Shown: in pieces, positions 6,237 to 38,726 of the stretch
Layout of the letters: the number at the start of each line of letters is the position of its first letter
Numbering within the stretch: position 1 is the stretch's first letter
NCBI GenBank assembly: GCA_964371375.1
Contig: CAYJMR010000001.1
Coordinates: 1 to 48,369 of the forward strand
DNA length: 48,369 nt
Direction: 5' to 3'
DNA from: an uncultured Treponemataceae bacterium
GTDB taxonomy: Bacteria > Spirochaetota > Spirochaetia > Treponematales > Treponemataceae
The notes under the pieces: generated by a model
The model's database searches: none
What the model saw: the letters and a program-made list of their open reading frames with translations, nothing else
Told to the model about the DNA's origin: nothing
Made by a program: the position numbers and the translations under genes

Positions 6237-8207
6237 TTGTTGCAGTATGATTTAAAAGTAGAATTGGCTTCTCTTGTTATTATGTCAATAATAATGTTAA
6301 ACCTTTTTTGGGATAGGGGCGTAGATTCTCGAAGAAATCAGCTTTTTAGGGGGATTGTGTTTGTTGCCTTTTCCTCAATAGTTATTACTCTTATTTCAAC
6401 GTATAGTTCATTGTACTTTAATAATTTTCCTATGTGGATAATAGATTTATTTAAAGTTCTCTACTATATATTGTTACCTAGTTCTTCTGCTATTGTTTTT
6501 TTGTATGCAGTATCCCTTCGGAAAATTAAAACTTCTTCTATAAGTTTTAATACTCTGTATTTTGTTTTATTGCTCCCATATATTCTTTATGTGCTTTTAG
6601 TAATCTCAAACTATTGGTTTTATGGTTTTTTTTCTATTTCACCTGACTTTGGGTATGTAAGAGGACCGTTGTATCAAGTTCCATATCCAGTTTCATTTTT
6701 TTACATTGCAGGTATTTTTGTTGTAGCAATAATTAGTAGGCATGAAACAAATAGAGGTATTTGGTTTATTCTTTGCATAAGTATGGTCGTTATTACACTC
6801 ATTGTTATGTGCCAATTCTTTTTTTCAAACATATTACTAACTGGTTTTGCAAATGCGACAGGAGTTTTGCTCGTATATTTGTATGTTCAAAATGTAACCA
6901 AGTCAACAGATTCATTAACAGGTCTTTATAACAGGGAAAGGTTTACCTACACTCTAACGAAACTTATTAAAATTAGATTTAAGATGTTTCGAAGAGAAAA
7001 AGAAGTTAAAACATTCTCTCTAGTTGCCTTTAGTATTAGGAATATGAAGGCTATTAATGAAAGATTTGGGTTGGTGTATGGCAATGGAATAATTGAAGGA
7101 GTAGGAAAATACTTAAAGCGGGCTTCTCATCCATATGTTGTATATCGTTACAGTGGAGATGAATTTGCAATTCTCATAAATGAGCCGCAAGAGTCCTTAG
7201 ATAATCTGCTTCAAGAAATTGTCAAGAGATTTGAGCTTCCATTTAAGAATGATAGCTTTTCAACGGAAATTAATCTAAGCATTGTCTATGCGCGCGTAGA
7301 CTTTCCTAGTTTTGGGAAAGATGCGAGAACATTATTAACAGCTCTCGATTACTCAATCGCATCATTAAAAAAAGGTTTAGTGAAGTCAAATTTTATGCAT
7401 GACATTTCTGTTTTTAATACTATGAGTAGAAGAAACAAAATTATAGAAAGGTTAAAAGATGCCATAAAAAATGATGGGTTTGAAGTTCATTATCAGGCAA
7501 TATATTCTATAAAAGATGGAAAATTCACAGGAGCAGAAGTCCTTGTGAGAATGAAAGACAATATAATAGATCCTATTTATCCAAATGAGTTTATACCATT
7601 AGCAGAAGAAACGGGGTTAATAATCGAAATTACGTACAAAATAATTGAAAAGGTCTGCAAAGATTTGAGAACTCTGATAGACATACATAGTAGCAATATA
7701 GATGTTATATCCGTATCAATTAACTTTTCTTACACACAGTTTTTAGATTATGAGATGGTTTCAAAAATGATGTCTATTTTACAAACTTACAATATTTCGC
7801 CGGCTTGGATTAAAATAGAAATAACCGAAAGAGCCTTGATACATGAAACAGTGCTAATCCATAGTATTATGACAGATATGAAAGAAGAAGGTTTTATCTT
7901 TGAGCTTGATGATTTTGGAATTGACTATTCAAATATAAGCATGGTACTTGATTTACCAGTAGATATAATAAAAATTGACAGAAGTTTAGTGCTAATTGCA
8001 ACTGCAACCAAAAAACACCAAGATTTTTTTAAACAGTTTATTAAAGCTATAAAACTTACAGGGCGTACGCTCATAGTGGAAGGTGTAGAAAAAAAAGAGC
8101 AAGTTGATTTTTTTGAATCATGTGGCTGCGAATATATACAGGGCTTTTACTATGCTGTGCCTTTAAACTTTAATGACTTTGTTGCATTTTTATTAAAAAA
8201 GCGTTAG
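6237..8207 (+). CDS. 7TM sensor - degenerate GGDEF - EAL protein (predicted c-di-GMP phosphodiesterase)
   Basis: 656 aa. TTG start 6 nt after AGAGGAG. Seven N-terminal TM helices. GGDEF domain has SGDEF instead of GGDEF, and SIRNMK replaces the DxDxFK metal site. EAL domain has EVLVR, EITER, DDFGIDYS, KIDRS, EGVE and QGFYYA. Confidence 0.85.
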   Translation: MLQYDLKVELASLVIMSIIMLNLFWDRGVDSRRNQLFRGIVFVAFSSIVITLISTYSSLYFNNFPMWIIDLFKVLYYILLPSSSAIVFLYAVSLRKIKTSSISFNTLYFVLLLPYILYVLLVISNYWFYGFFSISPDFGYVRGPLYQVPYPVSFFYIAGIFVVAIISRHETNRGIWFILCISMVVITLIVMCQFFFSNILLTGFANATGVLLVYLYVQNVTKSTDSLTGLYNRERFTYTLTKLIKIRFKMFRREKEVKTFSLVAFSIRNMKAINERFGLVYGNGIIEGVGKYLKRASHPYVVYRYSGDEFAILINEPQESLDNLLQEIVKRFELPFKNDSFSTEINLSIVYARVDFPSFGKDARTLLTALDYSIASLKKGLVKSNFMHDISVFNTMSRRNKIIERLKDAIKNDGFEVHYQAIYSIKDGKFTGAEVLVRMKDNIIDPIYPNEFIPLAEETGLIIEITYKIIEKVCKDLRTLIDIHSSNIDVISVSINFSYTQFLDYEMVSKMMSILQTYNISPAWIKIEITERALIHETVLIHSIMTDMKEEGFIFELDDFGIDYSNISMVLDLPVDIIKIDRSLVLIATATKKHQDFFKQFIKAIKLTGRTLIVEGVEKKEQVDFFESCGCEYIQGFYYAVPLNFNDFVAFLLKKR

Positions 8208-8257: not shown

Positions 8258-10228
8258 GTGATACAGTACAATTATGCAGCAGAACTCGCTTCATTTGTAA
8301 TAATATCAATATTACTACTAAATCTTTTTTTAGAAAAAGAACCTGACTCAAGACGAAACCGATTTTTTAAAGGTATCGTTCTGGCGATATTCTTGATTGT
8401 AGTTTTCACGTTAATTTCAACGTATATGACAATGGATATTTTGATGTATCCAATATGGCTGGTAGTGTTTGCTGTCGACATGTATTTTATATCATTGCCC
8501 TTAGCTTTGGTTATGGGATTGTTGTATGTAAAGTCATTAAAAAGAAGCAGAAATACTAAGGCTAAAATTTCACTTCCAACTATTCTATTGATGGCCCCGT
8601 ATGCACTCTATGTTATTTTTGTAATTGCTAATTATTTTTCACATTATTTGTTTTCAATTTCGTATGAATTCGGATACGTGAGAGGAAATTTATACCTTCT
8701 TCCATACCCAGTTGCATTATTTTATATCGTTGCAATATTTATTGAAGCTTTTCGAAGCAGGAATTCAATATACAGGGGGATAGGTTTTGTTATATGTATA
8801 AATGTTGTGGTTATGTCCGCAATATCATTTTCTCAACTAATCTTTCCAGAAGTATTGCTATCGGGGCTTGCAAATGTTGCAGGCGCATTGGTGGTGTTTT
8901 TATATATACAAAATGTTACGAGGTCAACAGATAGTTTAACAGGGTTTCATAATAGAGTAAGGCTTGCATATGATGTAGAAAAAAGAGTGAGTGCGTACGC
9001 TAGAAAAAAAGGCACTTCAAATAATACCCAATTTGAGTTTTCACTTGTTTTGTATAGCCTTAGAAACATAAAAGGAATAAATGAACGCTATGGTCTTTTG
9101 GGTGGTGATGAACTCTTAGAGGGCGTTGCGGTACATCTTCGACAAACTTTTAAAAGATATCATGTATATCGTTATAGTGGTGATGAGTTTGCAGTTTTAA
9201 TGGATAAAAAATATGAAGAGAAAGAAGCTCTCGTCCATAAAGCAGCAGAGCGTTTCGAAAAACCTTTCTTCGGTGAAAGCAGTAAAAAAGAAATGACGGT
9301 TAAGGTAGTATATGCGCAGGTTGATTTTCCTGAATTTGGTACAGACCCTAAGCCTCTAGTTTCAGCTCTTGACTACTCAATCTCATCATTAAAGCATGGA
9401 AAGTATCGTACTAATTTTATGCACGACCTTACAATTTGCGAAAAAATGAGCCGGCGTAATAGTGTTATAGACCGAATAAAATATGCCCTAGAAAATGATG
9501 GCTTTGAAGTGAATTACCAACCAATATATTCTACCCAAGCAAAGACCTTTAAAGGAGCCGAGGCTCTTTTGCGTATGAAAAAAGAATTAGGGTCGATTTA
9601 TCCAGATGAGTTTATCCCCCTCGCAGAAGAAACAGGGCTCATAGTAAATATGACATATATGGTTCTAGAGAAGGTGTGTGCAGATTTACGTTCGCTTTTG
9701 GATCGATATGGTTCAAAACTGGATGGGCATTCAATTTCTATAAACTTTCCCTCTGCACAGTTTTTAGAACAAAACCTTGTCTCAAAAATAATGCAGATAC
9801 TAGGTAAATATGATATTTGCCCAGAGCAAATTAAGATAGAAATTACTGAACGAACTCTGATTGGGGATGCAGGTTTAATAAGTGGTGTTATGCGTGAAAT
9901 GCAAGAGAAAGGGTTTGTGTTTGAAGTTGATGACTTTGGGGTTGATTATTCGAATATTAGTTTAATTTTGCACTTGCCAGTGGAAATAATAAAAATTGAT
10001 AGAAGCTTGGTTTTGTTGGCAACAGAAAAAGAAAGATATGAAGATTTTTTTAGATTTTTCTTAAAGGCTATTCGACATACTGATAGAAAAGTTGTTATCG
10101 AAGGTGTCGAGACAAAGGAGCAGGCAGATTTTTTTATAAGTTGTGGAAGTGAGTATATTCAAGGTTTTTATTATGCACACCCTATGCCGTATGATGATTG
10201 TATAAAATTATTGGATGATATTTTGTAG
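8258..10228 (+). CDS. 7TM sensor - degenerate GGDEF - EAL protein (tandem paralog)
   Basis: 656 aa, the same length as the upstream gene and alignable end to end, by eye roughly half the residues identical. GTG start after AAGGA. Motifs SGDEF, SLRNIK, EALLR, EITER, DDFGVDYS, EGVE, QGFYYA. Confidence 0.85.
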   Translation: MIQYNYAAELASFVIISILLLNLFLEKEPDSRRNRFFKGIVLAIFLIVVFTLISTYMTMDILMYPIWLVVFAVDMYFISLPLALVMGLLYVKSLKRSRNTKAKISLPTILLMAPYALYVIFVIANYFSHYLFSISYEFGYVRGNLYLLPYPVALFYIVAIFIEAFRSRNSIYRGIGFVICINVVVMSAISFSQLIFPEVLLSGLANVAGALVVFLYIQNVTRSTDSLTGFHNRVRLAYDVEKRVSAYARKKGTSNNTQFEFSLVLYSLRNIKGINERYGLLGGDELLEGVAVHLRQTFKRYHVYRYSGDEFAVLMDKKYEEKEALVHKAAERFEKPFFGESSKKEMTVKVVYAQVDFPEFGTDPKPLVSALDYSISSLKHGKYRTNFMHDLTICEKMSRRNSVIDRIKYALENDGFEVNYQPIYSTQAKTFKGAEALLRMKKELGSIYPDEFIPLAEETGLIVNMTYMVLEKVCADLRSLLDRYGSKLDGHSISINFPSAQFLEQNLVSKIMQILGKYDICPEQIKIEITERTLIGDAGLISGVMREMQEKGFVFEVDDFGVDYSNISLILHLPVEIIKIDRSLVLLATEKERYEDFFRFFLKAIRHTDRKVVIEGVETKEQADFFISCGSEYIQGFYYAHPMPYDDCIKLLDDIL

Positions 10229-10293: not shown

Positions 10294-11169
10294 CTACTTT
10301 GTACTCATTTCGATTCGCTTTTCGCGTACTTTTTGTAAATTTTGTATCATGTTGTTTGCATCAGCATTTTTCACAAAATCTTTTAGCTTCGAAAGAGAGG
10401 ACTCAAATTTTTCAATATGGTTCACAAGCTCTTCTTTGTTTTCTATAAAAAGCTCTGTCCACAGAGGGGCGTTAATCATAGCTATGCGTGTCAAATCTTC
10501 GTAGCTCCCACCTCCAAAGGCTGTTATGTTCGTGTCTTCAGCACTATCCACAAGAGCAGAGGCTATAACATGGCAAAGTTGTGAGGTAAAAGCTATTTTG
10601 TGATCATGGCTTATTGCATCTGTTTCAATAATCTGCTTAAACCCCATCGCATAAGCTAAATTTTTAAGAAAGGTTATGTTTTCACTTTTTGATTTTTCTA
10701 AAGGAAGCAGAATATAGTTTCGTCCTTTGAAAATATCGGCAGAAGAATGAGTATAACCTTCTTTTTCACTTCCTGCCATTGGGTGGGCGGGAATAAAATC
10801 AACGTCAGCACGGGTAAAATCTTTTAAACCCTCTATCAGGGCTAGTTTAGTGCCTGCAATATCTGTAATAATTGATCCTGATTTAAAACTTTGTTGATGT
10901 TCAATTATAAACTCAAGGGTTCGTTTGGGGTACAAGCAAACTATAACAACGTCACAAACTGAGAGCATTTCCCCAACGGCATTGGGTAAAAATCCCTCAT
11001 CTATCACGCCATCATTCTTCGCTAATTGAAGTGTTTTTTCATCTTTGTCGCAGGCTAGAAGGCGAATACCCCCGTTAATAAAAGGGCTTGCTGCAATTGA
11101 ACATTGTTTTATTGCCTTTGCATAAGATCCTCCCATGAGGCCCAGTCCTATAAAGCCAAATGTTTTCAT
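10294..11169 (-). CDS. tyrA: prephenate dehydrogenase
   Basis: 291 aa. N-terminal Rossmann motif GFIGLGLMGGS and the HPMAGSE motif typical of prephenate/arogenate dehydrogenases. ATGA overlap with aroF. Confidence 0.85.
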   Translation of the reverse strand: MKTFGFIGLGLMGGSYAKAIKQCSIAASPFINGGIRLLACDKDEKTLQLAKNDGVIDEGFLPNAVGEMLSVCDVVIVCLYPKRTLEFIIEHQQSFKSGSIITDIAGTKLALIEGLKDFTRADVDFIPAHPMAGSEKEGYTHSSADIFKGRNYILLPLEKSKSENITFLKNLAYAMGFKQIIETDAISHDHKIAFTSQLCHVIASALVDSAEDTNITAFGGGSYEDLTRIAMINAPLWTELFIENKEELVNHIEKFESSLSKLKDFVKNADANNMIQNLQKVREKRIEMSTK

Positions 11170-12194
11170 AGTGTTTTACCTTCGATGTTTGCATAAGCTG
11201 TAACTTTTTTCATAATTTCATCAAACTCGGCAGGTGTAACAGATTGTTCTCCATCACTCAGGGCACATTCTGGATTGTTGTGGACTTCAATCATAAGACC
11301 ATCTGCTCCAACCGCAACAGCCGCCTTTGCCAAGGATTCAACCATCCAAGCCATTCCACATGCGTGGCTCGGGTCAATTATTATAGGAAGATGACTTTCC
11401 TTTTTTAAGAACGGAACAGCACTTAAATCTAAGCAATTTCTGGTATAGTTATCAAATGTTCTAATGCCACGCTCACAAAGAATAATATCGTTATTTCCCG
11501 CTGCCATAAGGTATTCTGCAGACATTAAAAACTCTTTGATGGTTGCGCTAAGCCCCCGTTTTAAAAGGATTGGCTTTTTGCATGAGCCTAGCTCTTTTAA
11601 AAGATCAAAGTTTTGCATGTTTCTTGCCCCGATTTGAATAATATCTACGTTGTCAAACTCTTCAAGTTGTTTGATAGCCATGATTTCTGTAACAATGGGA
11701 AGGCCTGTTTCTTTTTTTACAGCCTCCATTAAGCGCATACCATCTCCACCCATTCCTTGGAAGGCATAGGGAGATGTACGGGGCTTAAAAACACCACCAC
11801 GCAAAAATTGAGCACCACTTGCCTTTATAGCTTTGCCTATTTCCATGAGTTGTTCTTCGCTTTCAACAGAGCAAGGCCCTGCCATGACGGCGAGACGATT
11901 TGACCCAATAATAAAATCTGTTCCCTTTGCTTTATCGCCTACATTAACCAGGGTGTCTTTGGGGTGAAATTTTCTGTTTGCTTTTTTGTAGGGCTCTTGT
12001 ACACGCATAACTTTGCTTACAAGATGGTGAATTTCCAAACTTTTTTCATTTATGGAAACAGTGTCTCCAACCAAGCCCACAATAGTAGTGTTTTCGCCTC
12101 GTGAAAGGTGTGTGTCTAAGCCTCTTCCATGAAGCATCGTTAAGAACTCTTGCAGTTCCTTTTCTTCTACATTTGGTTTTAATACAACAATCAT
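11166..12194 (-). CDS. aroF: 3-deoxy-7-phosphoheptulonate (DAHP) synthase, class I-beta with N-terminal regulatory ferredoxin-like domain
   Basis: 342 aa. Motifs [19 protein letters not shown] and IIDPSHA match KDO8PS-like I-beta DAHP synthases. A 70-aa N-terminal extension resembles the Thermotoga-type enzyme. SD AGGAGAGG upstream. Confidence 0.85.
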
Positions 12195-12223
12195 ATTCCT
12201 CTCCTAAAAATTTATTGAAACAT

Positions 12224-12253
12224 AAAAAAAAGGCCCCTTTTAAAGGAGCCTTT
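12224..12253 (-). terminator. leader (attenuator) terminator immediately upstream of aroF
   Basis: Minus strand reads AAAGGCUCC-UUUAAAA-GGGGCCUUU followed by more U, a run of 8 U in total. This is a 9-bp stem with one G-U. It ends 30 nt before the aroF ATG. Confidence 0.6.
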
Positions 12254-12284
12254 ATCTATCAATAGTATTATACTACTGCTCAAA

Positions 12285-12347
12285 TTACAGATGCGCTCCT
12301 GTATGGGTTTGAGAAAAATAGTAATAATAAAAGTAGTTTTTGTTCAT
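12285..12347 (-). CDS. putative aromatic-rich leader peptide (20 aa, MNKNYFYYYYFSQTHTGAHL)
   Basis: ATG at 12347, TAA at 12287..12285. Codons 5-11 are TAC TTT TAT TAT TAC TAT TTT. Sits between a promoter-like element and the leader terminator of aroF-tyrA. No SD, so it is possibly leaderless. Confidence 0.5.
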   Translation of the reverse strand: MNKNYFYYYYFSQTHTGAHL

Positions 12348-12353
12348 ATAGTT

Positions 12354-12382
12354 AGTATATACTATGAATAGAAACAAGTCAA
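12354..12382 (-). promoter_or_regulatory. sigma70-like promoter (TTGACT-17-TATACT) for the aroF-tyrA leader
   Basis: Minus strand has TTGACT (12382..12377), a 17-nt spacer, TATACT (12359..12354). The predicted TSS coincides roughly with the mini-ORF ATG. Confidence 0.45.
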
Positions 12383-12460
12383 GGTGAGCCCAGGAAAATT
12401 GTAAATTTTTTCGACTTAAATTATGTGAGATAGGTTAGAGAAGACAACCTTGCATATTTT

Positions 12461-12499
12461 AAAATAAAGATGCCCACACATAACAAATGTGTGGGCATC
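12461..12499 (-). terminator. rho-independent terminator of the FlgD-Ig/OmpA gene
   Basis: Perfect 12-bp stem GATGCCCACACA / TGTGTGGGCATC (12469..12480 / 12488..12499) with a 7-nt loop. On the minus strand it is followed by TTTATTTT. Starts 8 nt after the stop codon. Confidence 0.75.
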
Positions 12500-12506
12500 T
12501 TAAATT

Positions 12507-15500
12507 CTACTTATCTAAAATAAATTCTACGCGGCGGTTTTTCCACCAGTTATCTCTATCACTTAAAGCTGCAATTGGTACGCGACCTCCCATACCAACA
12601 GTGCTTAGGCGACTTTCACTTATTCCGTATGAAATAAGTACTTGTTTTACATACTCGGCCCTAGCTTCGCTGAGAGGTACGAGTGGAATATTTCCATTTT
12701 CGGTCGAAGTCTCTTCTTCCTCAGTCCCACTTAGGTTATTTGCATGACCTTCAATTGTTACGTTGTAGTCTCTAAACTTATTCAAGATTTCTGCAATACG
12801 TCGCAATACTCTTTCGTTGTTATCAATAACAGACTGTGATAATCCTCTCGCAGGATCTTCTGAGCGTCCAACAAAGTCTGCATTATCACTTCTGAAGATA
12901 ATTGATGGAACTTGCATTTTTAATACATCACCAATGCGGATAACAAGTACATCAATTGGAATAACGCCTTCTACAGTTGATGTCATTCCTACAGAGTCCG
13001 TTACAGTGAATACATATGGATAATCCATAGCTGATTGAACAAGTTCCCCTGTATTGCTTCTACCGTCCCAAATTATTCGCTCTGTAATTGATGTTTTACC
13101 GGTTGTTGTCCAGAATGGTCTATTATTTTGGGGGTCTTGAATTTCAAAAGACCATGAACTAAACGGAACTATGCTTTGTCCTTGAAGTCTAATAAACATA
13201 TCATCATCTGAACCGTCATTATCTGGGCTAAAGTATTCAGGAGCAGTTTGTACTAAAAGCATAGGAGCTGTTATGGTGCTTATAAAAGGTGAACTGGTAA
13301 CAGATACAGTGTCTCCTTTTGTGTAAGATAGATTCAAGTTTGCAGTAAAGCTTCCTTCTGCAATAATTCCACTGCTTGATATTCCATCCCAAGTAATTGT
13401 AGCTGGTACATCTGGCTGGTCTGTGTTATCCCATTCTTGAACTATTGTTCCTGTTGAAGTATTTACTATTGTAAATGCCCATGAATCAACACCTTCTGTA
13501 ATACTTGTTCTTATAGTAAAGGTTTGATTATCCAAGAAATCATCATTATTTGGGCTAAAGGCTTCATTTGAAATTGTAATATAGGCAGTTGCTTCACGAT
13601 TATCAATTTCTATGTTCCCAAGCTCGGCTGCAACAGTATTTCCAGCTCTATCGGTACTAGTAATGGCAAAAGTGTATGAACCGTCAAGTGCAGTATTTCC
13701 AGCCTCATCTGTTCCGTCCCATGCAAAAGATTGTGCTAGTCCATTCCAGCTCATCGTCTTTACAATTTCATTGTTTTCATCAGCTGTAATTGTAGCGGTC
13801 CATAAATTTTCTTCACTTGATGTAATGTCTAGGGTAAGAGAATCTTTATTATTATCTCCATTCGGACTAAATAAAGTGTATGGAGCGCTTAGTGTAACTG
13901 TAGGGTACTCGGTATCCAGCTCGAAGCTTTGCGTTACAACTCTTGTTTCACTTCCATTATTTGAAAGAGTATACAAAGAAGCAGAATACATTCCATCTAG
14001 AGCTCTTGCTCCTTCATCGGTAAGTCCATTCCAATCTATTGCTCTTGGAAGGCTTCTTTGTTCAGTGAAGGTTCTTACTGTTTTACCTTCTGCATCAAGA
14101 ATTAAGAGCTCATACTCGGAAACTCCTGTGTTTGTGCGGATAATTGGTGAAAAAGTAATTGTATCTTTTGTTCCATCGCTGTTAGGGCTAAAGGCATCGG
14201 GACTCACCGTGAGAATAACTTCTGTAGTTCCAGTATTTAGCTCTATCGCTGTTGTTTGCTCTTCTCTAACATTTCCTGCTAAGTCTGTACTTGCAAGAAC
14301 ATATTTATAAAAGCCATCAACTATTTGGCCGTCATCGGTTACCCCATTCCATTCTACCGATTCAGGTGGCTCTTCACCAAATTCCCACTGTTTAACAACT
14401 TCATTTGCTTCGTTTATGATTGTTCCTGTCCAGGCTTTTTCTCTAGAGCCTTCTTGGAAAATTGTAATGCTATCAAGTCTGCCATCACCATCGGGACTAA
14501 AAATAGTTCGGTCTGTACGTACTCCAGCAACAGGTTTTGTGTTATCTACAGTAATATTTCTATTTATTGTTGACTCTTGGCCGTTACTAAAAAGGGCAGT
14601 AAAAGAGAGCTTGTAATTTCCGTCTGCCAGAACTGCGCCGTTACTGCTTTTTCCGTCAAAAGCAATGCTTTGCGGTGGCTCATCCGTTCCATCAAATGTA
14701 AAAACAGTTCTGTCTCGAGAATCTTTAATATCAATTTCCCAGTTAAGTAGTCCAGAGCTTGTAGACATAGAGGGTAAAATGTTGATTGTATCTTTTACAC
14801 CATCCCCATTTGGAGAAAAAGGACTTCCTTGTACCATCATGTTTACTGCTCTTGGAATTGCATCGTATATGATATTTGTAATTTGTGCACTTTCATTGTT
14901 GTTTCCGGCTCTGTCGGTACTTGTTATTCTATAGGTATATGCGCCTTCGGAAACAGCAACATTGTTATTATCTTTTCCATCCCATTCTATGTTCCGCGGA
15001 ATAGAATTTCTCCAAGAAAAAGTTCTTACAACGGCGCCAGTGCTATCAAGGACTTGTCCTGTCCATAAATCTTCTTGAGAACCTGTTTGGGTAATCGAAA
15101 ATTCTGCTTTATTGCTTCCGCCAAAGATTTTTTCTGCGGCAGAAGGTTGTTCTATTGTTACCGTTGGCTCTGTATTGTCAACAATAACTTCATATGATGA
15201 TGTTCTGCTTTCGTTTCCGTTGTCATCAGAAGCCCTTACGTAGTAGCTATATGTTCCATCGGGTGCAACTTCACCGGAGTCCAAAATTCCATTCCACGTT
15301 ACGCTTTCGGGTATTACAACACCTTGTTTTGGTGAAAAAAGGCGTTGAAAAAAGCTTCTAAAGGTAAGACTTTCTGGAAGTGCAACTTTATTTCCGACTG
15401 TTCTGACTATATTTCCGGTTCCATCTTCTATAACCAAGGCCCATTCACTTATATAGCGAGTGTCTTGAATAGATAGAGGGATTATTAATTCATCTTGCAC

Positions 15501-15632
15501 ACCATCATTGTTTGGTGAGATATATACGGGTCCTGAAGGAGCTCGTTGTGCAAACAGTGCTACACCTGTAACAATGAGTACAAGAAGTATGGATATCGCA
15601 ATAATGCGAGTAGGTTTTTTTTGAGTTATCAT
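12507..15632 (-). CDS. large envelope protein: signal/anchor + 8 tandem FlgD-Ig-like modules + C-terminal OmpA-like peptidoglycan-binding domain
   Basis: Start chosen at the second ATG (15632) because GGGAGG (15641..15636) sits 3-4 nt upstream; the track start at 15644 lies inside that SD. Repeated FSPNGDGxKD ... W(D/N)G ... DG.Y.Y...TD.AGN modules. C-terminus VTIEGHANN...RAEYV...NRRVEFIL is OmpA_C-like. Confidence 0.8.
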   Translation of the reverse strand: MITQKKPTRIIAISILLVLIVTGVALFAQRAPSGPVYISPNNDGVQDELIIPLSIQDTRYISEWALVIEDGTGNIVRTVGNKVALPESLTFRSFFQRLFSPKQGVVIPESVTWNGILDSGEVAPDGTYSYYVRASDDNGNESRTSSYEVIVDNTEPTVTIEQPSAAEKIFGGSNKAEFSITQTGSQEDLWTGQVLDSTGAVVRTFSWRNSIPRNIEWDGKDNNNVAVSEGAYTYRITSTDRAGNNNESAQITNIIYDAIPRAVNMMVQGSPFSPNGDGVKDTINILPSMSTSSGLLNWEIDIKDSRDRTVFTFDGTDEPPQSIAFDGKSSNGAVLADGNYKLSFTALFSNGQESTINRNITVDNTKPVAGVRTDRTIFSPDGDGRLDSITIFQEGSREKAWTGTIINEANEVVKQWEFGEEPPESVEWNGVTDDGQIVDGFYKYVLASTDLAGNVREEQTTAIELNTGTTEVILTVSPDAFSPNSDGTKDTITFSPIIRTNTGVSEYELLILDAEGKTVRTFTEQRSLPRAIDWNGLTDEGARALDGMYSASLYTLSNNGSETRVVTQSFELDTEYPTVTLSAPYTLFSPNGDNNKDSLTLDITSSEENLWTATITADENNEIVKTMSWNGLAQSFAWDGTDEAGNTALDGSYTFAITSTDRAGNTVAAELGNIEIDNREATAYITISNEAFSPNNDDFLDNQTFTIRTSITEGVDSWAFTIVNTSTGTIVQEWDNTDQPDVPATITWDGISSSGIIAEGSFTANLNLSYTKGDTVSVTSSPFISTITAPMLLVQTAPEYFSPDNDGSDDDMFIRLQGQSIVPFSSWSFEIQDPQNNRPFWTTTGKTSITERIIWDGRSNTGELVQSAMDYPYVFTVTDSVGMTSTVEGVIPIDVLVIRIGDVLKMQVPSIIFRSDNADFVGRSEDPARGLSQSVIDNNERVLRRIAEILNKFRDYNVTIEGHANNLSGTEEEETSTENGNIPLVPLSEARAEYVKQVLISYGISESRLSTVGMGGRVPIAALSDRDNWWKNRRVEFILDK
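12944..15524 (-). repeat. eight diverged tandem coding repeats (about 95-115 codons each) encoding FlgD-Ig-like modules
   Basis: Module starts in the protein: YISPNNDGVQDE, a degenerate second module, FSPNGDGVKDT, FSPDGDGRLDS, FSPNSDGTKDT, FSPNGDNNKDS, FSPNNDDFLDN, FSPDNDGSDDD. Boundaries are approximate. The repeats are visible at the protein level, not as identical DNA repeats. Confidence 0.6.
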
Positions 15633-16678
15633 TATTCCTCCCATAATTTTATTTCAGGGGCTTGGGTATCTTCTAAGCCTAGGTATAAGGCAGCACTACC
15701 AGATACAACAGAAACATTGTTGTTAAGTGGTTTAAATGCACCAGATGCAATTATTTCATTCTGAGTAAGACCTTGTCTTCCAAGGAGAGACTCTTCTTTT
15801 GCATTAATATTGAGTTTCATGCTTAAAGCTACACTTGGATAAAAATTTGCTTTTCCTTGTATGGTTTCAACCATGTTTAGTTGCCACCCAGTTGATAGTT
15901 TAAACATGTTAAAGAATAAAAAGCTTAAGTTTGTATCAAAAACAACATTTTGAAAGGTTGGGAATGAGAGATCAAAAGATAAGCCTGATTGAACTTGCTT
16001 TGTTTCAAATAGTGTTCCCGCAAAACCAAGTTTTGGTGTAATCATTCCAGGAAAACCACTTGTATCGCTTGAATCATCTTTTACACCTGCGCTTGAAGGG
16101 TTGTATGTTTTTCCTAGTTGTGTTAAAGAGGCCGCAAGTCTTACATCACTCATAAAGGGGAGCCAGGAAATTGTTTCAATGGCATATAATACACCTAAAT
16201 CACCTGATACGCCCCAGTCAGAACCAAAGGTACCAGAAAGTCCTAACCCTACATAAAGGTCATCAAGTATGTCTTTAGAATATGCTGTCCTTATTGTAAA
16301 ACTATCTTTTAAGTTCATGTCTTCAAAGGGGACAAAAACTCCTTGTACGCCCACTGTAAATACTCCAAAACGAGAAGGGAGAATTGTTCCCGCACTAAAG
16401 GCTTGTCCATAATTTTGGGTTTTATTTTGAGCAATTAAACCCGTGTAAGAAGCATCAATAACGATGCGTTGTTCTCCTGCACTAATAGCAGGGTTTATAC
16501 TTATGTGCCCAGGATATACTTGAAAAAGGGAACCACCTGCTGTCGAAGCTTCCCCAGAAAGCATAGACGGGCTAGTAAAATTAAATAAATTTTCACCTGA
16601 TAATGGGGGATTATATGTATATGCTGAAAAACACAGTACACTAACCACAAGACAAAAAAGAATTTTTTTTGCGTTCAT
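15632..16678 (-). CDS. putative outer-membrane beta-barrel protein (unknown family)
   Basis: Start moved to the ATG at 16678 (MNAKKILFCLVVSVLCFSAYTY...), with GGAGG 10 nt upstream. Signal peptide present. Alternating hydrophobic/Gly-Ser-Thr-rich strands run throughout, with aromatic residues at strand ends. Stop TAA overlaps the downstream ATG (TAATG). Confidence 0.6.
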   Translation of the reverse strand: MNAKKILFCLVVSVLCFSAYTYNPPLSGENLFNFTSPSMLSGEASTAGGSLFQVYPGHISINPAISAGEQRIVIDASYTGLIAQNKTQNYGQAFSAGTILPSRFGVFTVGVQGVFVPFEDMNLKDSFTIRTAYSKDILDDLYVGLGLSGTFGSDWGVSGDLGVLYAIETISWLPFMSDVRLAASLTQLGKTYNPSSAGVKDDSSDTSGFPGMITPKLGFAGTLFETKQVQSGLSFDLSFPTFQNVVFDTNLSFLFFNMFKLSTGWQLNMVETIQGKANFYPSVALSMKLNINAKEESLLGRQGLTQNEIIASGAFKPLNNNVSVVSGSAALYLGLEDTQAPEIKLWEE

Positions 16679-34487: not shown

Positions 34488-37376
34488 GTGCTTTTGTTTA
34501 ATAAAGTAAAGAGCAGCTTCTTGATTTTTCTTATTATATTATTCTCTTTACACCTAAACCTTTTTTCTGAAGAGGCGAATGTTATAAGGGTTGGTTATAA
34601 TGCTAATACAGGCCTTATATATGACTTTGGCAATCGAGGGAAAGAAGGTATTGGTTTTGAATTATTAAAGAAAATTGAAACGGTTTGTGACCTTCGTTTT
34701 GACTTCATTAAAATTGAAGGCGATGCTTTTAAAGCGTTAGAAAACAACGAAGTGGATATCATAGGTTTATACTTACGCACTCCTGAGCGTGAAGAAAAAT
34801 ATTTATATTCCAGCGATTCTTTTAATACTGTTATTTCCTCTTTGGCAACAAAAGGCCCCAAAGGAATATATTATGATGATCCTCAATCCATTGACGGAAA
34901 AACAGTGGCAACGTATGAGGGGAATCCTGCAAATGCGTTTCTTAACAAATATCTAGAGGCAAATAACATATCTGTAACGTATATTTTTGAGTCATTTCAA
35001 AATTATTTATTTATTGACGCAGATTTTTATCTAACATACACAGAAAGTTCAGTTATTAATAATTTTTATACTGTTCTCAATTTTGAAAGTTCCCCCACGT
35101 ACTTGCTTGCAAACTTTACCAATAAAGAAACAATGGATGAAATAGATAATGCTTATTCAAAGATACAAGCAGAAGAAGGATATTTTTTTAATGAGTTAGT
35201 ATCAAAATACAATTCCTCTGCGGTCAACCTTGCTCATAGAGAATTAACTCGAAAAGAAGTAGAAATATTGCGTGCAAAACCGCTTCGCGTCGGATATGTG
35301 GATAATCACAGGCCTTTTACTTATCTAGATGATGAGGGCAAAGCAAATGGAGCACTCATAGAATTGATGGATGTGTTTGCAAAAAAATATTCGTTTGATG
35401 TTGAATATATACCCTATAGCTTAGATACTTCATATGACTCTCATAGTGACTTTGATGTTATTTTATCATTGCTAGGTAATGAAAAATATGAATTAGAACA
35501 CTATGTACCAACAGAATCGTATTATAGCATGGCAATGGTCGCAACGGTCTCAAATAAAATTGCAAAAATAAATTATCTACCATTCGAAATTATTAAAAAT
35601 ACTCCTCGAATAGGTTTTCCTGAATATTTGTATATAAACTATGATTCTTTTCAAAAAATGTTTCCAGATAATGAATTAGTTTTTTTTGGCTCTTTTGAAG
35701 AAATGATAGATGCCTATAAAGATGGTAGTGTTGATATGGCTATTTATACAGCTTCGGGATCAACGTATGCGGACGCATATTTAGATAAGGGCGAAAACTA
35801 TCTTTTTGGAACAGACTTTATGTTAGATTTTTATATGTCTTTTTCAAAAAGTATTGCTTCCGATTATGTTCCAATTTTTAATATAATTCTTGACACGGTG
35901 ACAGTACGTGAATATGAAGCCCTTTTAAATAAACATACTTCAACATATTATCCTAGGATAACAGTAAAGGCGTTTATAGTAGAGTATTGGGTGTATGTCT
36001 TTGCTATTGGTATAGCTATTGCATTAATATTTTTGTCATATAATAACAAAGTTCGTGAAGAGCATAAAGATTTGCAAATTCAGGCATATAGGTCAGACCG
36101 ATTAACTGGGCTGGTGTCTATGTCTTATTACTATGAAAAAGTGCAAGAAGTTCTTTCCATAGCAAAGAACAATGAATATGAACTTATTAGCTTTGATATT
36201 GACTACTTTAGAACAATCAACACCTATTATAGCATGGAGCAGGGAACGGCTGTGATAGTAGAAATAGCAAGAGCGCTTGAAAACGTTTTTAAAGAAACAG
36301 AAGCAATTCATGCTAGGAAAACAGCAGAGCAATTTTACGTTTTACGAAAAATTGGTGAGGGTCCTGCCATTGAAATTTTACATAAAATTTATATACTGCC
36401 GGCTATTAGGACCGTTTTGGGTGATAGATATAATGCAGTTCTTTCTTATGGTTTTGTTACTATTGACAACTGTGAAGAAACTATCTCTGACATTATTGCA
36501 TATGCCGACTATGCTCGCATGAGAGGAAAGTCTAGTCATGTAACAACTTTTATTGGCTTTGATAGAAAAATGAAAAAAGCTTTTACATCTAATCTGCATA
36601 TAACCTTTAAGATGGAGCAGGGGATTAAGGAGAAGGAGTTTAAGGTTTTTTATCAGCCAAAAGTAGATTTTAGAACTCTTAGAATAGTAGGAGCAGAAGC
36701 TTTAGTAAGATGGATTCCTTCACCTGGGGAAATTATTTATCCAAATGACTTTATTGATGTCTTTGAGAGCAATGGTTTTATTTCGACCTTGGATATGTAT
36801 GTTTTTAAAGATGTCTGTAGATATATAAGTGAGCTTTGTGATAAAGTAGATGTTCCCATTATTTCAGTAAATCTTTCCGCTGTTACTGTCCTTGAGGATA
36901 CTTTGATTTCACAATTAATGGCAATTTTGGATGAGTATGATGTAAAACCTTCTCAAATTGATCTTGAAATTACCGAAACGGCAATATTAGGGTCAGAAGA
37001 AATCTTTTTATCTAAAATTCGCCAGTTAAAAAAATTAGGCTTTATTGTTTCTATTGATGACTTTGGTTCTGGTGTATCCTCATTAAACAGGCTTTGCTCA
37101 ATACATGCAGATATTTTAAAGATGGATAAAGCTTTTTTTGAGCAAAAAGATTCAGATGAGCGAACTGCAATTGTAGTCGATGAGGTTATTACTCTTTCGA
37201 AAAGACTGGAAATGAAAATTGTTGCAGAGGGTGTTGAAACGTATGAACAAGCAAAGTGGCTACGAGATTTAGACTGTGATATTGCACAGGGTTATTATTT
37301 TTCAAAGCCAATTTCTGAAGAAATATTTTTTGAGTATATACAAACAGGAAAGTCATATGCGATAAGTAAGGTGTAG
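34488..37376 (+). CDS. periplasmic dual SBP_bac_3 sensor - TM - degenerate GGDEF - EAL protein (predicted c-di-GMP phosphodiesterase)
   Basis: 962 aa. GTG start 9 nt after GGAGGA. Signal peptide and two solute-binding-like domains (IRVGYNANTG..., LRVGYVDNHRPFTYLDDEGKANG...), then one TM. GGDEF domain has TAEQF instead of GGDEF. EAL motifs are intact: EALVRW, EITET, DDFGSG, KMDKAF, EGVET, QGYYFSKP. Confidence 0.8.
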   Translation: MLLFNKVKSSFLIFLIILFSLHLNLFSEEANVIRVGYNANTGLIYDFGNRGKEGIGFELLKKIETVCDLRFDFIKIEGDAFKALENNEVDIIGLYLRTPEREEKYLYSSDSFNTVISSLATKGPKGIYYDDPQSIDGKTVATYEGNPANAFLNKYLEANNISVTYIFESFQNYLFIDADFYLTYTESSVINNFYTVLNFESSPTYLLANFTNKETMDEIDNAYSKIQAEEGYFFNELVSKYNSSAVNLAHRELTRKEVEILRAKPLRVGYVDNHRPFTYLDDEGKANGALIELMDVFAKKYSFDVEYIPYSLDTSYDSHSDFDVILSLLGNEKYELEHYVPTESYYSMAMVATVSNKIAKINYLPFEIIKNTPRIGFPEYLYINYDSFQKMFPDNELVFFGSFEEMIDAYKDGSVDMAIYTASGSTYADAYLDKGENYLFGTDFMLDFYMSFSKSIASDYVPIFNIILDTVTVREYEALLNKHTSTYYPRITVKAFIVEYWVYVFAIGIAIALIFLSYNNKVREEHKDLQIQAYRSDRLTGLVSMSYYYEKVQEVLSIAKNNEYELISFDIDYFRTINTYYSMEQGTAVIVEIARALENVFKETEAIHARKTAEQFYVLRKIGEGPAIEILHKIYILPAIRTVLGDRYNAVLSYGFVTIDNCEETISDIIAYADYARMRGKSSHVTTFIGFDRKMKKAFTSNLHITFKMEQGIKEKEFKVFYQPKVDFRTLRIVGAEALVRWIPSPGEIIYPNDFIDVFESNGFISTLDMYVFKDVCRYISELCDKVDVPIISVNLSAVTVLEDTLISQLMAILDEYDVKPSQIDLEITETAILGSEEIFLSKIRQLKKLGFIVSIDDFGSGVSSLNRLCSIHADILKMDKAFFEQKDSDERTAIVVDEVITLSKRLEMKIVAEGVETYEQAKWLRDLDCDIAQGYYFSKPISEEIFFEYIQTGKSYAISKV

Positions 37377-37418: not shown

Positions 37419-38726
37419 ATGAAAAAAAACAAAGTTGTTGTGCTTCTCGTTCTTGTTTGTGTTTGTATTACGTACGTTTTTGCTAGATATATGTTTGCAG
37501 AAAGAGAGTATGCAAAAGGGGTAACTTCTTTTATGCAGCTTCATGGAGAAAGAGTACAAAATGCCTTTAACCGAAGTGTTGAAGGTGGGATGATTTTAGA
37601 AAGCCTTGTGCGTTATCTTGACTTTGATTTTGATAAAGATACGTTTGACTATGTAGCAGAAGATTGGTTTAATGAAAATACCATGATTTCTATTTCATAT
37701 ATGCCAGAAGGTGTTGTTCAATGGATATATCCCCCTACAAAAGATAATAATAATGTTTTAGGTTTGAATGTCTTTGAGTTTGAAGGGACAAGGAAAGGCG
37801 CTTTAGAATCAAAAAATAATAAATCTATTATGATCTCCGGACCTATAGAACTTCAAAGTGGTGAACTCGGGCTTACGGTGAGAACGCCTATTTACACAAA
37901 TCAGGGTTCTTTTTGGGGTTTTGTTTCTGTCCTTTACGATTCTAAAATGGTTGCGTATGATGCGATAGAAGCAAATTCTATTGAGGGCATGGGTTACAAG
38001 TTTGCAATTCATTCGAATTATGATGGAAATGTTATTCCCCTATTAGCATCAGATAACTTTGATTATGAAAAGGCCTATTTTACTGAAGTGACAATTGCCG
38101 AAAACGATTGGGAGTTTTATTTGTACAGTGAAGAATACGAACGGCAAATTGTGTGGTTTTTTGTAGAGCGCATTATTGAAGCTATTGGTTTATGTGCAAT
38201 GATTTTTATGGGCGTAATGATATTGCAAAAACGGCAAAAGCTTGTATACGAGCAAATATACCTTGATCAATTAACCCGGTTATATAACAGAAAAAAAATG
38301 GATGCTATTGTTGGGAAAGAAAAGGACTCTAAAAAGGGAGGATTCTCCATTTTTTATATAGATTTAAATAAATTTAAACCTGTTAACGATATGTATGGCC
38401 ATGCAGTAGGGGATAAACTCTTAATCGCTTTTGCCTCTCGTCTAATACACCGTTTTGATGAATCAGCGACGAGGATTAGAATGGGAGGGGATGAGTTTGT
38501 TCTAATCATTGATACTGAGTTAGATGAAGATAGTATTCTAAAAGTAAAAGATAGAATTGTTTTTTTGGCAGAAGAAGAATTTTTTATTGATCACTTGACG
38601 ATAAGAATCTCTGCCTCTATTGGTTTTGCCACCTCTCCGAAAGATGGAACAACAATCGCAGAGGTTTTGGAAAAAGCAGACAATATGATGTATGAAGAGA
38701 AACAAAAAAAGAAAGAATCAAGATAA
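37419..38726 (+). CDS. sensor diguanylate cyclase (periplasmic CHASE-like domain - TM - GGDEF)
   Basis: 435 aa with an N-terminal TM and a periplasmic domain of about 230 aa. Second TM (residues ~245-270). Canonical YIDLNKFKPVNDMYGHAVGD and RMGGDEFVLI. I saw no RxxD I-site 5 residues upstream of GGDEF. Confidence 0.8.
   Translation: MKKNKVVVLLVLVCVCITYVFARYMFAEREYAKGVTSFMQLHGERVQNAFNRSVEGGMILESLVRYLDFDFDKDTFDYVAEDWFNENTMISISYMPEGVVQWIYPPTKDNNNVLGLNVFEFEGTRKGALESKNNKSIMISGPIELQSGELGLTVRTPIYTNQGSFWGFVSVLYDSKMVAYDAIEANSIEGMGYKFAIHSNYDGNVIPLLASDNFDYEKAYFTEVTIAENDWEFYLYSEEYERQIVWFFVERIIEAIGLCAMIFMGVMILQKRQKLVYEQIYLDQLTRLYNRKKMDAIVGKEKDSKKGGFSIFYIDLNKFKPVNDMYGHAVGDKLLIAFASRLIHRFDESATRIRMGGDEFVLIIDTELDEDSILKVKDRIVFLAEEEFFIDHLTIRISASIGFATSPKDGTTIAEVLEKADNMMYEEKQKKKESR

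Follow-up and report, generated by a model that had tools for sequence, protein, structure and literature searches.

Two systems have been described in which an upstream open reading frame (uORF) is linked to aroF, and our literature search found no other paper making such a link. In Corynebacterium glutamicum, the reports on the aroR-aroF locus (Neshat et al. 2014, as described in PMC11802643 and PMC4046766) describe a Phe-Tyr-Phe leader peptide before the gene for 3-deoxy-D-arabino-heptulosonate 7-phosphate (DAHP) synthase, with read-through that rises upon ribosome stalling under aromatic limitation; aroR is reportedly responsive to Phe and not to Tyr (PMC11802643). The second, uORFC-13-1, is a predicted uORF with -35 and -10 elements that lies directly 5' of an intrinsic terminator and is found in front of aroF exclusively; its proposed role is to sense the incorporation of aromatic amino acids, and it has been reported only from Acholeplasma and environmental sequences (Brewer et al. 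2021, PMC8632094). Leaderless short open reading frames (sORFs) encoding polycysteine serve as attenuators in mycobacteria, among the Actinobacteria (bioRxiv 10.1101/834739), and attenuation of aroF-tyrA in Escherichia coli was hypothesised in 1980, as cited in a later paper (PMC2659441). No report of a leader-peptide attenuator in spirochaetes was found in the literature. Here we analyse the leader of an aroF-tyrA operon in a 48 kb stretch of DNA (48,369 nucleotides, hereafter the window) from an uncultured Treponemataceae bacterium. A preliminary description of this DNA had proposed trpL/pheL-type attenuation, in which a ribosome stalled on aromatic codons permits read-through into the operon. 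This logic is supported by conservation, covariation, geometry and folding, and, judged from the sequence, the window leader is very probably a ribosome-mediated attenuator of this type acting on aroF-tyrA. The same description was unaware of any Tyr-codon leader for this operon, which is too strong a statement given the precedents of C. glutamicum aroR-aroF and Acholeplasma uORFC-13-1.

Organization of the leader and its operon

All coordinates of the leader locus refer to the minus strand of the window. The leader is preceded by a sigma-70-type promoter, TTGACT-17-TATACT (12354..12382), which is the best sigma-70-like match in 11000..13500 (10/12 positions) and is present just as the preliminary description gave it. 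A mini-ORF, MNKNYFYYYYFSQTHTGAHL (12285..12347), runs from the ATG at 12347 through 20 codons to a TAA (12287..12285). Its codons 5-11 (12315..12335), the putative regulatory codons, read Y F Y Y Y Y F, that is five Tyr and two Phe; the ORF, its stop and this seven-codon aromatic run all lie where they had been placed before. A run of at least seven aromatic codons occurs only this once in the six frames of the window. Taken by itself the window is suggestive, and it is the conservation in related loci, described below, that lifts the case above chance.

Within the ORF tail, AGGAGC (12295..12300; leader nt 48-53) forms the predicted 5' strand of an antiterminator, starting 14 nt past the last aromatic codon and ending 7 nt short of the stop. 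It is the exact complement of GCUCCU (12249..12244), a hexamer common to the antiterminator and to the 5' arm of the terminator, and in this the earlier account was accurate. The intrinsic terminator, AAAGGCUCCUU / UAA / AAGGGGCCUUU followed by U8, occupies 12224..12253, with its hairpin at 12253..12229. Its position and U8 run agree with what had been described; the stem, previously given as 9 bp, is drawn here as 11 bp with a 3-nt loop. The distance from the U-run to the aroF ATG at 12194 is 29 nt, a minor correction of the 30 nt given before.

The controlled operon (10294..12194, minus strand) consists of aroF (11166..12194) and tyrA (10294..11169), which overlap by 4 nt. Pfam domains bear out the gene functions assigned earlier: aroF carries DAHP_synth_1 and DAHP_snth_FXD, corresponding to a DAHP synthase with an N-terminal ferredoxin-like domain, and tyrA carries PDH_N/PDH_C, corresponding to a prephenate dehydrogenase. 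The aroF Shine-Dalgarno (SD) sequence, AGGAGAGG (12198..12205), lies 3' of the leader terminator and is unsequestered. The sigma-70-like scan of 11000..13500 found no promoter-like site between the leader terminator and aroF, and the gap after the terminator, 29 nt in the window and 12-40 nt in many orthologues, is so short that it leaves no room for a separate aroF promoter.

Conservation of the leader in spirochaetes

We compared 18 aroF loci of Treponemataceae and Spirochaetaceae with enough upstream DNA (AroF identity 64-96%, window included). This set leaves out locus L003, whose upstream region reaches the contig end, and the more distant L063. AroF identity to the window is 91-96% for L001-L006 and 65-67% for further Treponema metagenome-assembled genomes. 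A protein search yielded many further spirochaete AroF sequences at 63-89% identity, including those of T. brennaborense, T. ruminis, Treponema sp. HNW and CETP13, and eleven loci from this search were retrieved for comparison. In 17/18 loci a mini-ORF containing an aromatic run precedes a hairpin with at least six U; the ORF is in frame in L001, L002, L004-L008, L201 and L203-L211, and the terminator hairpin with at least six U occurs in every related locus. The alignment of related aroF upstream regions that the preliminary description had proposed thus finds run, frame and terminator conserved. The runs observed are YFYYYYF, YFYYYWF, FYFYYYW, YFYFYYW, YFYYYYWFF, YSYYGYFYF, YSYYYLY, FYFYYY and YYYY, and the conserved leaders include examples of 45-46% G+C (L204, L208). 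Eight of the leader peptides gave zero matches in Pfam and NCBIfam. A metagenome-wide scan for the codon-run pattern TAYTTYTAYTAYTAYTNNNNNTCT yielded no new leaders, as all of the matches listed were low-complexity or random.

The preliminary description had seen in the Tyr-dominated leader a match to an operon for pathway entry plus the Tyr branch. In T. ruminis-type loci, however, the leader precedes aroF alone, without tyrA, indicating that the element belongs to aroF and not to the Tyr branch. Tyr is the main allosteric inhibitor of DAHP synthases with a ferredoxin-like domain, such as the Thermotoga enzyme. By analogy, such inhibition of the FXD-type DAHP synthase would be a plausible rationale for the Tyr bias.

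In three close relatives of the window, L002 (2860-3000), L003 (1-181) and L005 (169-443), an insertion of 110-275 nt separates the leader terminator from aroF. The insertions of L003 and L005 share a common element whose inverted arms are rich in G/C (GGGGTGGGGTTAAGGGGAGGGGGAAA ... TTCCCCCTCCCCTAAAAA) and which recalls a miniature mobile element; we searched for this element in the window and found it absent.

Promoter spacing and the start of the mini-ORF

A sigma-70 consensus match of 9-11/12 positions lies upstream of the mini-ORF in 18/18 spirochaete loci, and the distance from the end of the -10 hexamer to the start codon is 6 nt in 14 of them, the window included, and 7 nt in the other four. 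The start codon is ATG, or GTG in L205. The sequences of the spacer between -10 hexamer and start are unrelated between lineages, and its length is kept. No SD precedes the mini-ORF in any of the 18 loci. The standard distance from a -10 element to +1 puts the expected +1 at the A of the start codon (in the window, the A of the ATG at 12347), and this spacing is therefore a signature of leaderless mRNA. The mini-ORF start thus appears to have the geometry of a leaderless mRNA, with the transcription start predicted from the promoter, and with translation indirectly supported by the conserved spacing of 6-7 nt and the coding-type pattern of substitutions. In B. burgdorferi, also a spirochaete, leaderless mRNAs have been mapped (PMC5314773). 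The missing SD, raised as a caveat in the preliminary description, is in this way answered in favour of leaderless mRNA. An upstream promoter, TTGTCT-16-CATAAT (12447..12420), had been put forward as the source of a leadered transcript. We rejected it as weaker and unneeded, because the sequence 5' of the -35 hexamer is unconserved even in a 96%-identity relative, whereas both the TTGACT promoter and the distance from it to the ATG are kept.

Covariation and spacing of the antiterminator

For each locus the terminator was taken from an independent fold, and the ORF tail was then searched for its longest helix with the terminator 5' arm plus loop. The resulting antiterminator helices are lineage-specific and 5-12 bp long, and both strands change together between lineages. 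AGGAGC:GCUCCU of the window is replaced by UGGAGC:GCUCCA in L004, UUCGGAG:CUCCGAA in L008, CGGAGUC:GACUCCG in L201, ACGCAGGGU:ACCCUGCGU in L204 (AroF identical to that of T. brennaborense), GUGGAAGUC:GACUUCCAC in L206 (T. ruminis) and a 12-bp pair in L211. When terminators were swapped among 11 representative loci, the summed complementarity of each ORF tail to its own terminator (80.5) exceeded the permutation mean (59.6), and 0/20,000 permutations reached 80.5. A MAFFT alignment of 16 leaders analysed with RNAalifold gave no consensus pair, as lineage-specific indels shift the terminator and antiterminator columns out of register.

The antiterminator strand begins 10-15 nt past the last aromatic codon in 16/18 loci and lies 45-67 nt upstream of its partner; from the strand to the stop codon the distance is 7 to 24 nt across loci. 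Given the size of the ribosome footprint, a ribosome stalled on the run would have its leading edge approximately 10-15 nt beyond it.

Codon-level conservation and alternative explanations

In close relatives, the four variable sites within the run are all synonymous third-position C/T changes, and third positions account for 7/8 variable sites in the first 13 codons. In deeper lineages, substitutions in the run stay within Tyr, Phe and Trp, and most of these lineages also hold one Trp codon in the run. The number of residues before the run varies from 4 to 30, and the run is invariably in frame with the start.

This pattern bears on the possibility that the leader is a cis-acting RNA read by a sensor other than the ribosome, such as a TRAP- or PyrR-like protein binding UAY/UUY repeats, a tRNA or a small ligand, which would stabilise either antiterminator or terminator, the ORF being incidental. 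Such a sensor would account for a mini-ORF lacking an SD; at the nucleotide level the conserved run reads as a repeat (UAYUUYUAYUAYUAY), and alternation between antiterminator and terminator is by itself silent on the identity of the sensor. What the run preserves, however, is amino-acid class and not nucleotides, since UAU is replaced by UGG or UUU in deeper lineages and close relatives differ only synonymously. A repeat bound as RNA would also leave unexplained why a start 6-7 nt after a -10 hexamer shares the frame of the run in every case, even across 20-30 codons, and why the antiterminator strand lies at a ribosome-sized distance of 10-15 nt from the run. Furthermore, 11900..12800 contains no match to the T-box family (RF00230) or to a riboswitch even at E <= 10, and the leader, at 124 nt, is too short for a T-box. 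We therefore consider a non-ribosomal sensor very unlikely.

Less likely still is that the ~124-nt unit is primarily the gene of a trans-acting small RNA or small peptide, with its position before aroF secondary and read-through constitutive. It does have its own strong promoter and terminator, and trans functions of attenuator RNAs and leader peptides are known, for example rnTrpL/peTrpL in Sinorhizobium (PMC7298713, PMC7968998). Against this, the unit stands directly upstream of aroF in every lineage despite differing flanking genes, and no separate promoter for aroF follows the terminator. The peptide itself is not what is conserved: its tail varies freely and its N-terminus is poorly conserved, while conservation falls on the codon run and on the complementarity to the terminator. 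A trans role would moreover add to the role in cis and not substitute for it.

A chance open frame in AT-rich intergenic DNA beside an ordinary leaky terminator, without any regulation, is hardly credible: the window is 35-38% G+C, holds six runs of at least five aromatic codons in its six frames and has a 6-bp complementarity within shuffle range, but a run of at least seven arises in only 3% of dinucleotide-preserving shuffles of the whole window, and the comparative data already contradict such an origin through the in-frame run in 17/18 loci down to 64% AroF identity, leaders of 45-46% G+C among them, the synonymous-only variation and the covariation of antiterminator and terminator.

Predicted folding and proposed mechanism of attenuation

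The window leader folds better than shuffled sequences (z = -3.1). Folding it as suggested in the preliminary description yielded three structures that exclude one another, namely the terminator, an extended antiterminator and, in the shortest transcripts, an anti-antiterminator. In nascent RNA of 76-98 nt, the minimum free energy (MFE) structure is the anti-antiterminator, which pairs nt 19-40 of the Tyr-run region with nt 64-82 (-14.9 kcal/mol). Its predicted first strand, formed by the end of the Tyr run and UCUCAAA (12308..12329), pairs with 12284..12266, and AGGAGC falls into a small hairpin (nt 45-49:58-62) with two of its six bases in the stem. We claim this 1:2 pairing as a prediction for the group of the window alone. 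Once nt 99-104 emerge (RNA of 104-112 nt), the MFE structure becomes the extended antiterminator (-18.4 kcal/mol), a stack of helices 48-53:99-104 and 56-61:89-94 and a hairpin at nt 70-88. The first of these is the AGGAGC:GCUCCU helix. The second, an extension which belongs to the MFE of nascent RNA 1-104 to 1-112, joins AUCUGU (12292..12287), which reaches from the final sense codons into the first base of the stop codon, to AUAGAU (12259..12254) and encloses the hairpin at 12278..12260. The antiterminator is therefore not, as it had been characterised, only 6 bp plus weak pairs, but three stacked helices. In RNA of at least 116 nt the terminator prevails, at -29.9 kcal/mol versus -22.9 kcal/mol for the forced antiterminator. 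When a ribosome is modelled at the stop codon, the terminator alone can form; placing it on the Tyr codons makes the antiterminator the MFE structure of the RNA transcribed up to that point. The antiterminator helix is present in the MFE of nascent RNA with a stalled ribosome in 15/18 loci.

These results are consistent with the following mechanism. Transcription would begin on the A of the ATG at 12347 or no more than one base away, and the leader peptide would be translated from a leaderless mRNA. When Tyr- and Phe-tRNAs (and Trp-tRNA in sister lineages) are well charged, the ribosome would pass the seven aromatic codons and occupy the ORF tail and stop (12300..12285) while the polymerase makes the terminator. 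Both antiterminator strands would then be covered, allowing the hairpin at 12253..12229 with its U8 run to form and transcription to stop approximately 29 nt before aroF. Under poor charging, the ribosome would stall on 12335..12315 and leave AGGAGC (12300..12295) and AUCUGU (12292..12287) exposed just past its leading edge. The exposed strands would pair with GCUCCU (12249..12244) and AUAGAU (12259..12254) as these emerge, the 5' arm of the terminator would be sequestered and the polymerase would continue into aroF-tyrA. Pairing of the Tyr run in the anti-antiterminator may contribute to this competition.

Several observations weigh against this interpretation. Whether or not a ribosome is stalled, the terminator exceeds the forced antiterminator in stability by 6-7 kcal/mol; as it is thermodynamically favoured in all states, the switch must be kinetic. 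Across the 18 loci a stalled ribosome, compared with none, had no consistent effect on the unpaired probability of the antiterminator strand, so that conservation of the anti-antiterminator could not be demonstrated. The 6-bp antiterminator core of the window is not significant on its own, since 9% of shuffled ORF tails equal it. The antiterminator strand of several orthologues ends 15-24 nt short of the stop codon, beyond the cover of a ribosome parked there, and masking it would need a ribosome in transit, coupled to transcription and probably 40-50 nt behind the polymerase. Translation of the mini-ORF depends on leaderless initiation, itself predicted, in Treponemataceae. Finally, four loci depart from the pattern: L202 has lost the ORF and the antiterminator strand and kept the terminator, L208 and L209 lack a simple antiterminator between ORF tail and terminator, and no leader was found at L063, from a GC-rich Treponema with 58% AroF identity.

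The leader of L202 (1950-2169; AroF 73% identical, ~24% G+C) has decayed: no start codon follows the -10 hexamer and the aromatic run is broken by indels, with the terminator AAAAAGACTCCAGTATGGAGTTTTTTTT intact. The Spirochaetaceae loci L208 (2218-2441) and L209 (2293-2478) keep the leaderless aromatic mini-ORF and the terminator, and extra hairpins between these two, such as AGCCCCGCGGGGCU in L208, suggest a relay of alternative pairings.

Aromatic leaders upstream of aroF in Clostridia and Fusobacteria

We also inspected ~450 nt upstream of aroF in 72 loci from Clostridia and Fusobacteria (L009-L080; for example L024:2580-3000, L058:2580-3000 and L013:2580-3000). In about 50 of the 72, an SD-led mini-ORF rich in Tyr, Phe and Trp, such as MKNLIRKGITAEYFYYGNWSYFFSAGYFCYSKTKIPISNEFNDI or MIHSINTRFTGYFYFGYYFSRNNLSCPVCRM, is followed by an intrinsic terminator. 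As in the window, the gene controlled is an FXD-type aroF (57-63% AroF identity), an aromatic mini-ORF stands with a terminator, and the ORF tail complements the terminator 5' arm, e.g. UAAUGAGUU:GACUCAUUA and GCCCUGUU:AACGGGGC. In contrast to the window, these ORFs have an SD, and their peptides are 30-60 aa long, with two aromatic clusters and a recurrent ..YFYFS.G.YFSAGYF.C.. motif. Neither Rfam, Pfam nor NCBIfam covers these SD-led leaders, and we found no publication on them.

Homology between the leaders of Clostridia and Fusobacteria and those of spirochaetes is plausible. We tentatively suggest, as a possibility about which we are nearly evenly divided, that the window leader represents the spirochaete branch of a large, uncurated, cross-phylum family of aromatic (Tyr/Phe/Trp) attenuators tied to FXD-class DAHP synthase genes, spanning Clostridia, Fusobacteria, probably Acholeplasma (uORFC-13-1) and Treponemataceae. 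Such a family would have travelled between phyla together with aroF and switched from SD-led to leaderless initiation in Treponemataceae, keeping the three-strand logic. The spirochaete element also draws attention to a much wider set of unannotated aroF leaders in Clostridia that annotation pipelines, Rfam, Pfam and NCBIfam currently miss.

In six Eubacteriaceae/Acetobacterium loci (L009, L011, L012, L013, L017, L018), a conserved motif, (C/T)(C/A)GTGCAC(A/G)G, with a GTGCAC palindrome core, lies 5-150 nt 3' of the leader terminator and before the aroF SD. This motif may act as a second regulatory site, for instance an operator.

Genomic surroundings in the window

Upstream of the leader lies a gene of the OmpA family (12507..15644, minus strand; 1045 aa) with repeated FlgD-Ig-like and Big domains, a weak CHU_C match and a C-terminal OmpA domain. 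It owns a strong terminator with a 15-bp stem (12467..12501), a palindrome that could serve both strands, so the hairpin at 12253 is not the terminator of that gene. No other amino-acid operons or leaders were found in the window. Two adjoining genes on the plus strand (6237..8207 and 8258..10228) are tandem paralogues encoding 656-aa GGDEF-EAL membrane proteins with 51% identity, and two more proteins of c-di-GMP turnover are encoded on the same strand at 34488..37376 and 37419..38726.

Comparison with known systems

Among Rfam families, Phe_leader (RF01859) aligns over its full length to 12224..12348 (minus strand) with 35.9 bits and E = 4e-4. The first strand of the predicted anti-antiterminator fits the layout of this alignment. 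As the score lies below the gathering score of 55, the window leader is an analogue of Phe_leader and not a member of the family. No leader matches at gathering level were obtained for four spirochaete and sixteen Clostridia/Fusobacteria loci; the gathering-level matches that did occur were T-boxes outside the aroF leader, on the opposite strand in L048 and ~2.5 kb upstream in L045.

Four attributes of a leader-peptide attenuator are nevertheless found together at this locus: a cluster of regulatory codons, a terminator interval free of promoters, an antiterminator that covaries with the terminator, and the appropriate geometry. Its recognition extends classic ribosome-mediated attenuation to the Spirochaetota, in a Tyr-dominated, leaderless version at the entry of the shikimate pathway, and offers a simple model, open to testing, of how gut and rumen treponemes may regulate their supply of aromatic amino acids; the cultured relatives T. 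brennaborense and T. ruminis both carry the element. For annotation, it would be useful to mark the 63-nt ORF and the ~124-nt leader, lest the terminator be read as the end of an orphan transcript.

The systems described so far resemble the window leader in different respects. With uORFC-13-1, compared by description only, it shares the position before aroF and the terminator; uORFC-13-1 has a ribosome binding site (RBS) and a U-run coding for at least one Phe, whereas here there is no RBS and a seven-codon Tyr/Phe run. The aroR-aroF locus of C. glutamicum, likewise compared by description only, is a functional analogue that also places an aromatic leader peptide before a DAHP synthase gene, with a three-residue aromatic motif in an actinobacterium instead of a run of seven codons. 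The mycobacterial leaderless sORFs have in common with the window an SD-less sensing ORF at the 5' end of the transcript, with codons for the amino acid of the downstream operon; they differ in amino acid and phylum, and in the window a canonical terminator and antiterminator are present. A parallel in architecture is provided by pheL-pheA and trpL-trpEDCBA of E. coli, in which a short ORF carrying consecutive codons for the pathway product and an intrinsic terminator precede the first structural gene, the antiterminator shares the 5' arm of the terminator, and the region of the codon run pairs with downstream RNA, as is predicted here. Unlike in those operons, where Phe or Trp codons dominate, the run here consists mainly of Tyr codons, the ORF of the spirochaete leaders has no SD and appears leaderless, the target is aroF-tyrA and the phylum is Spirochaetota. 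The mechanism is thus that of textbook leader-peptide attenuation, and what is new is the phylum, the leaderless start and the Tyr-dominated run.

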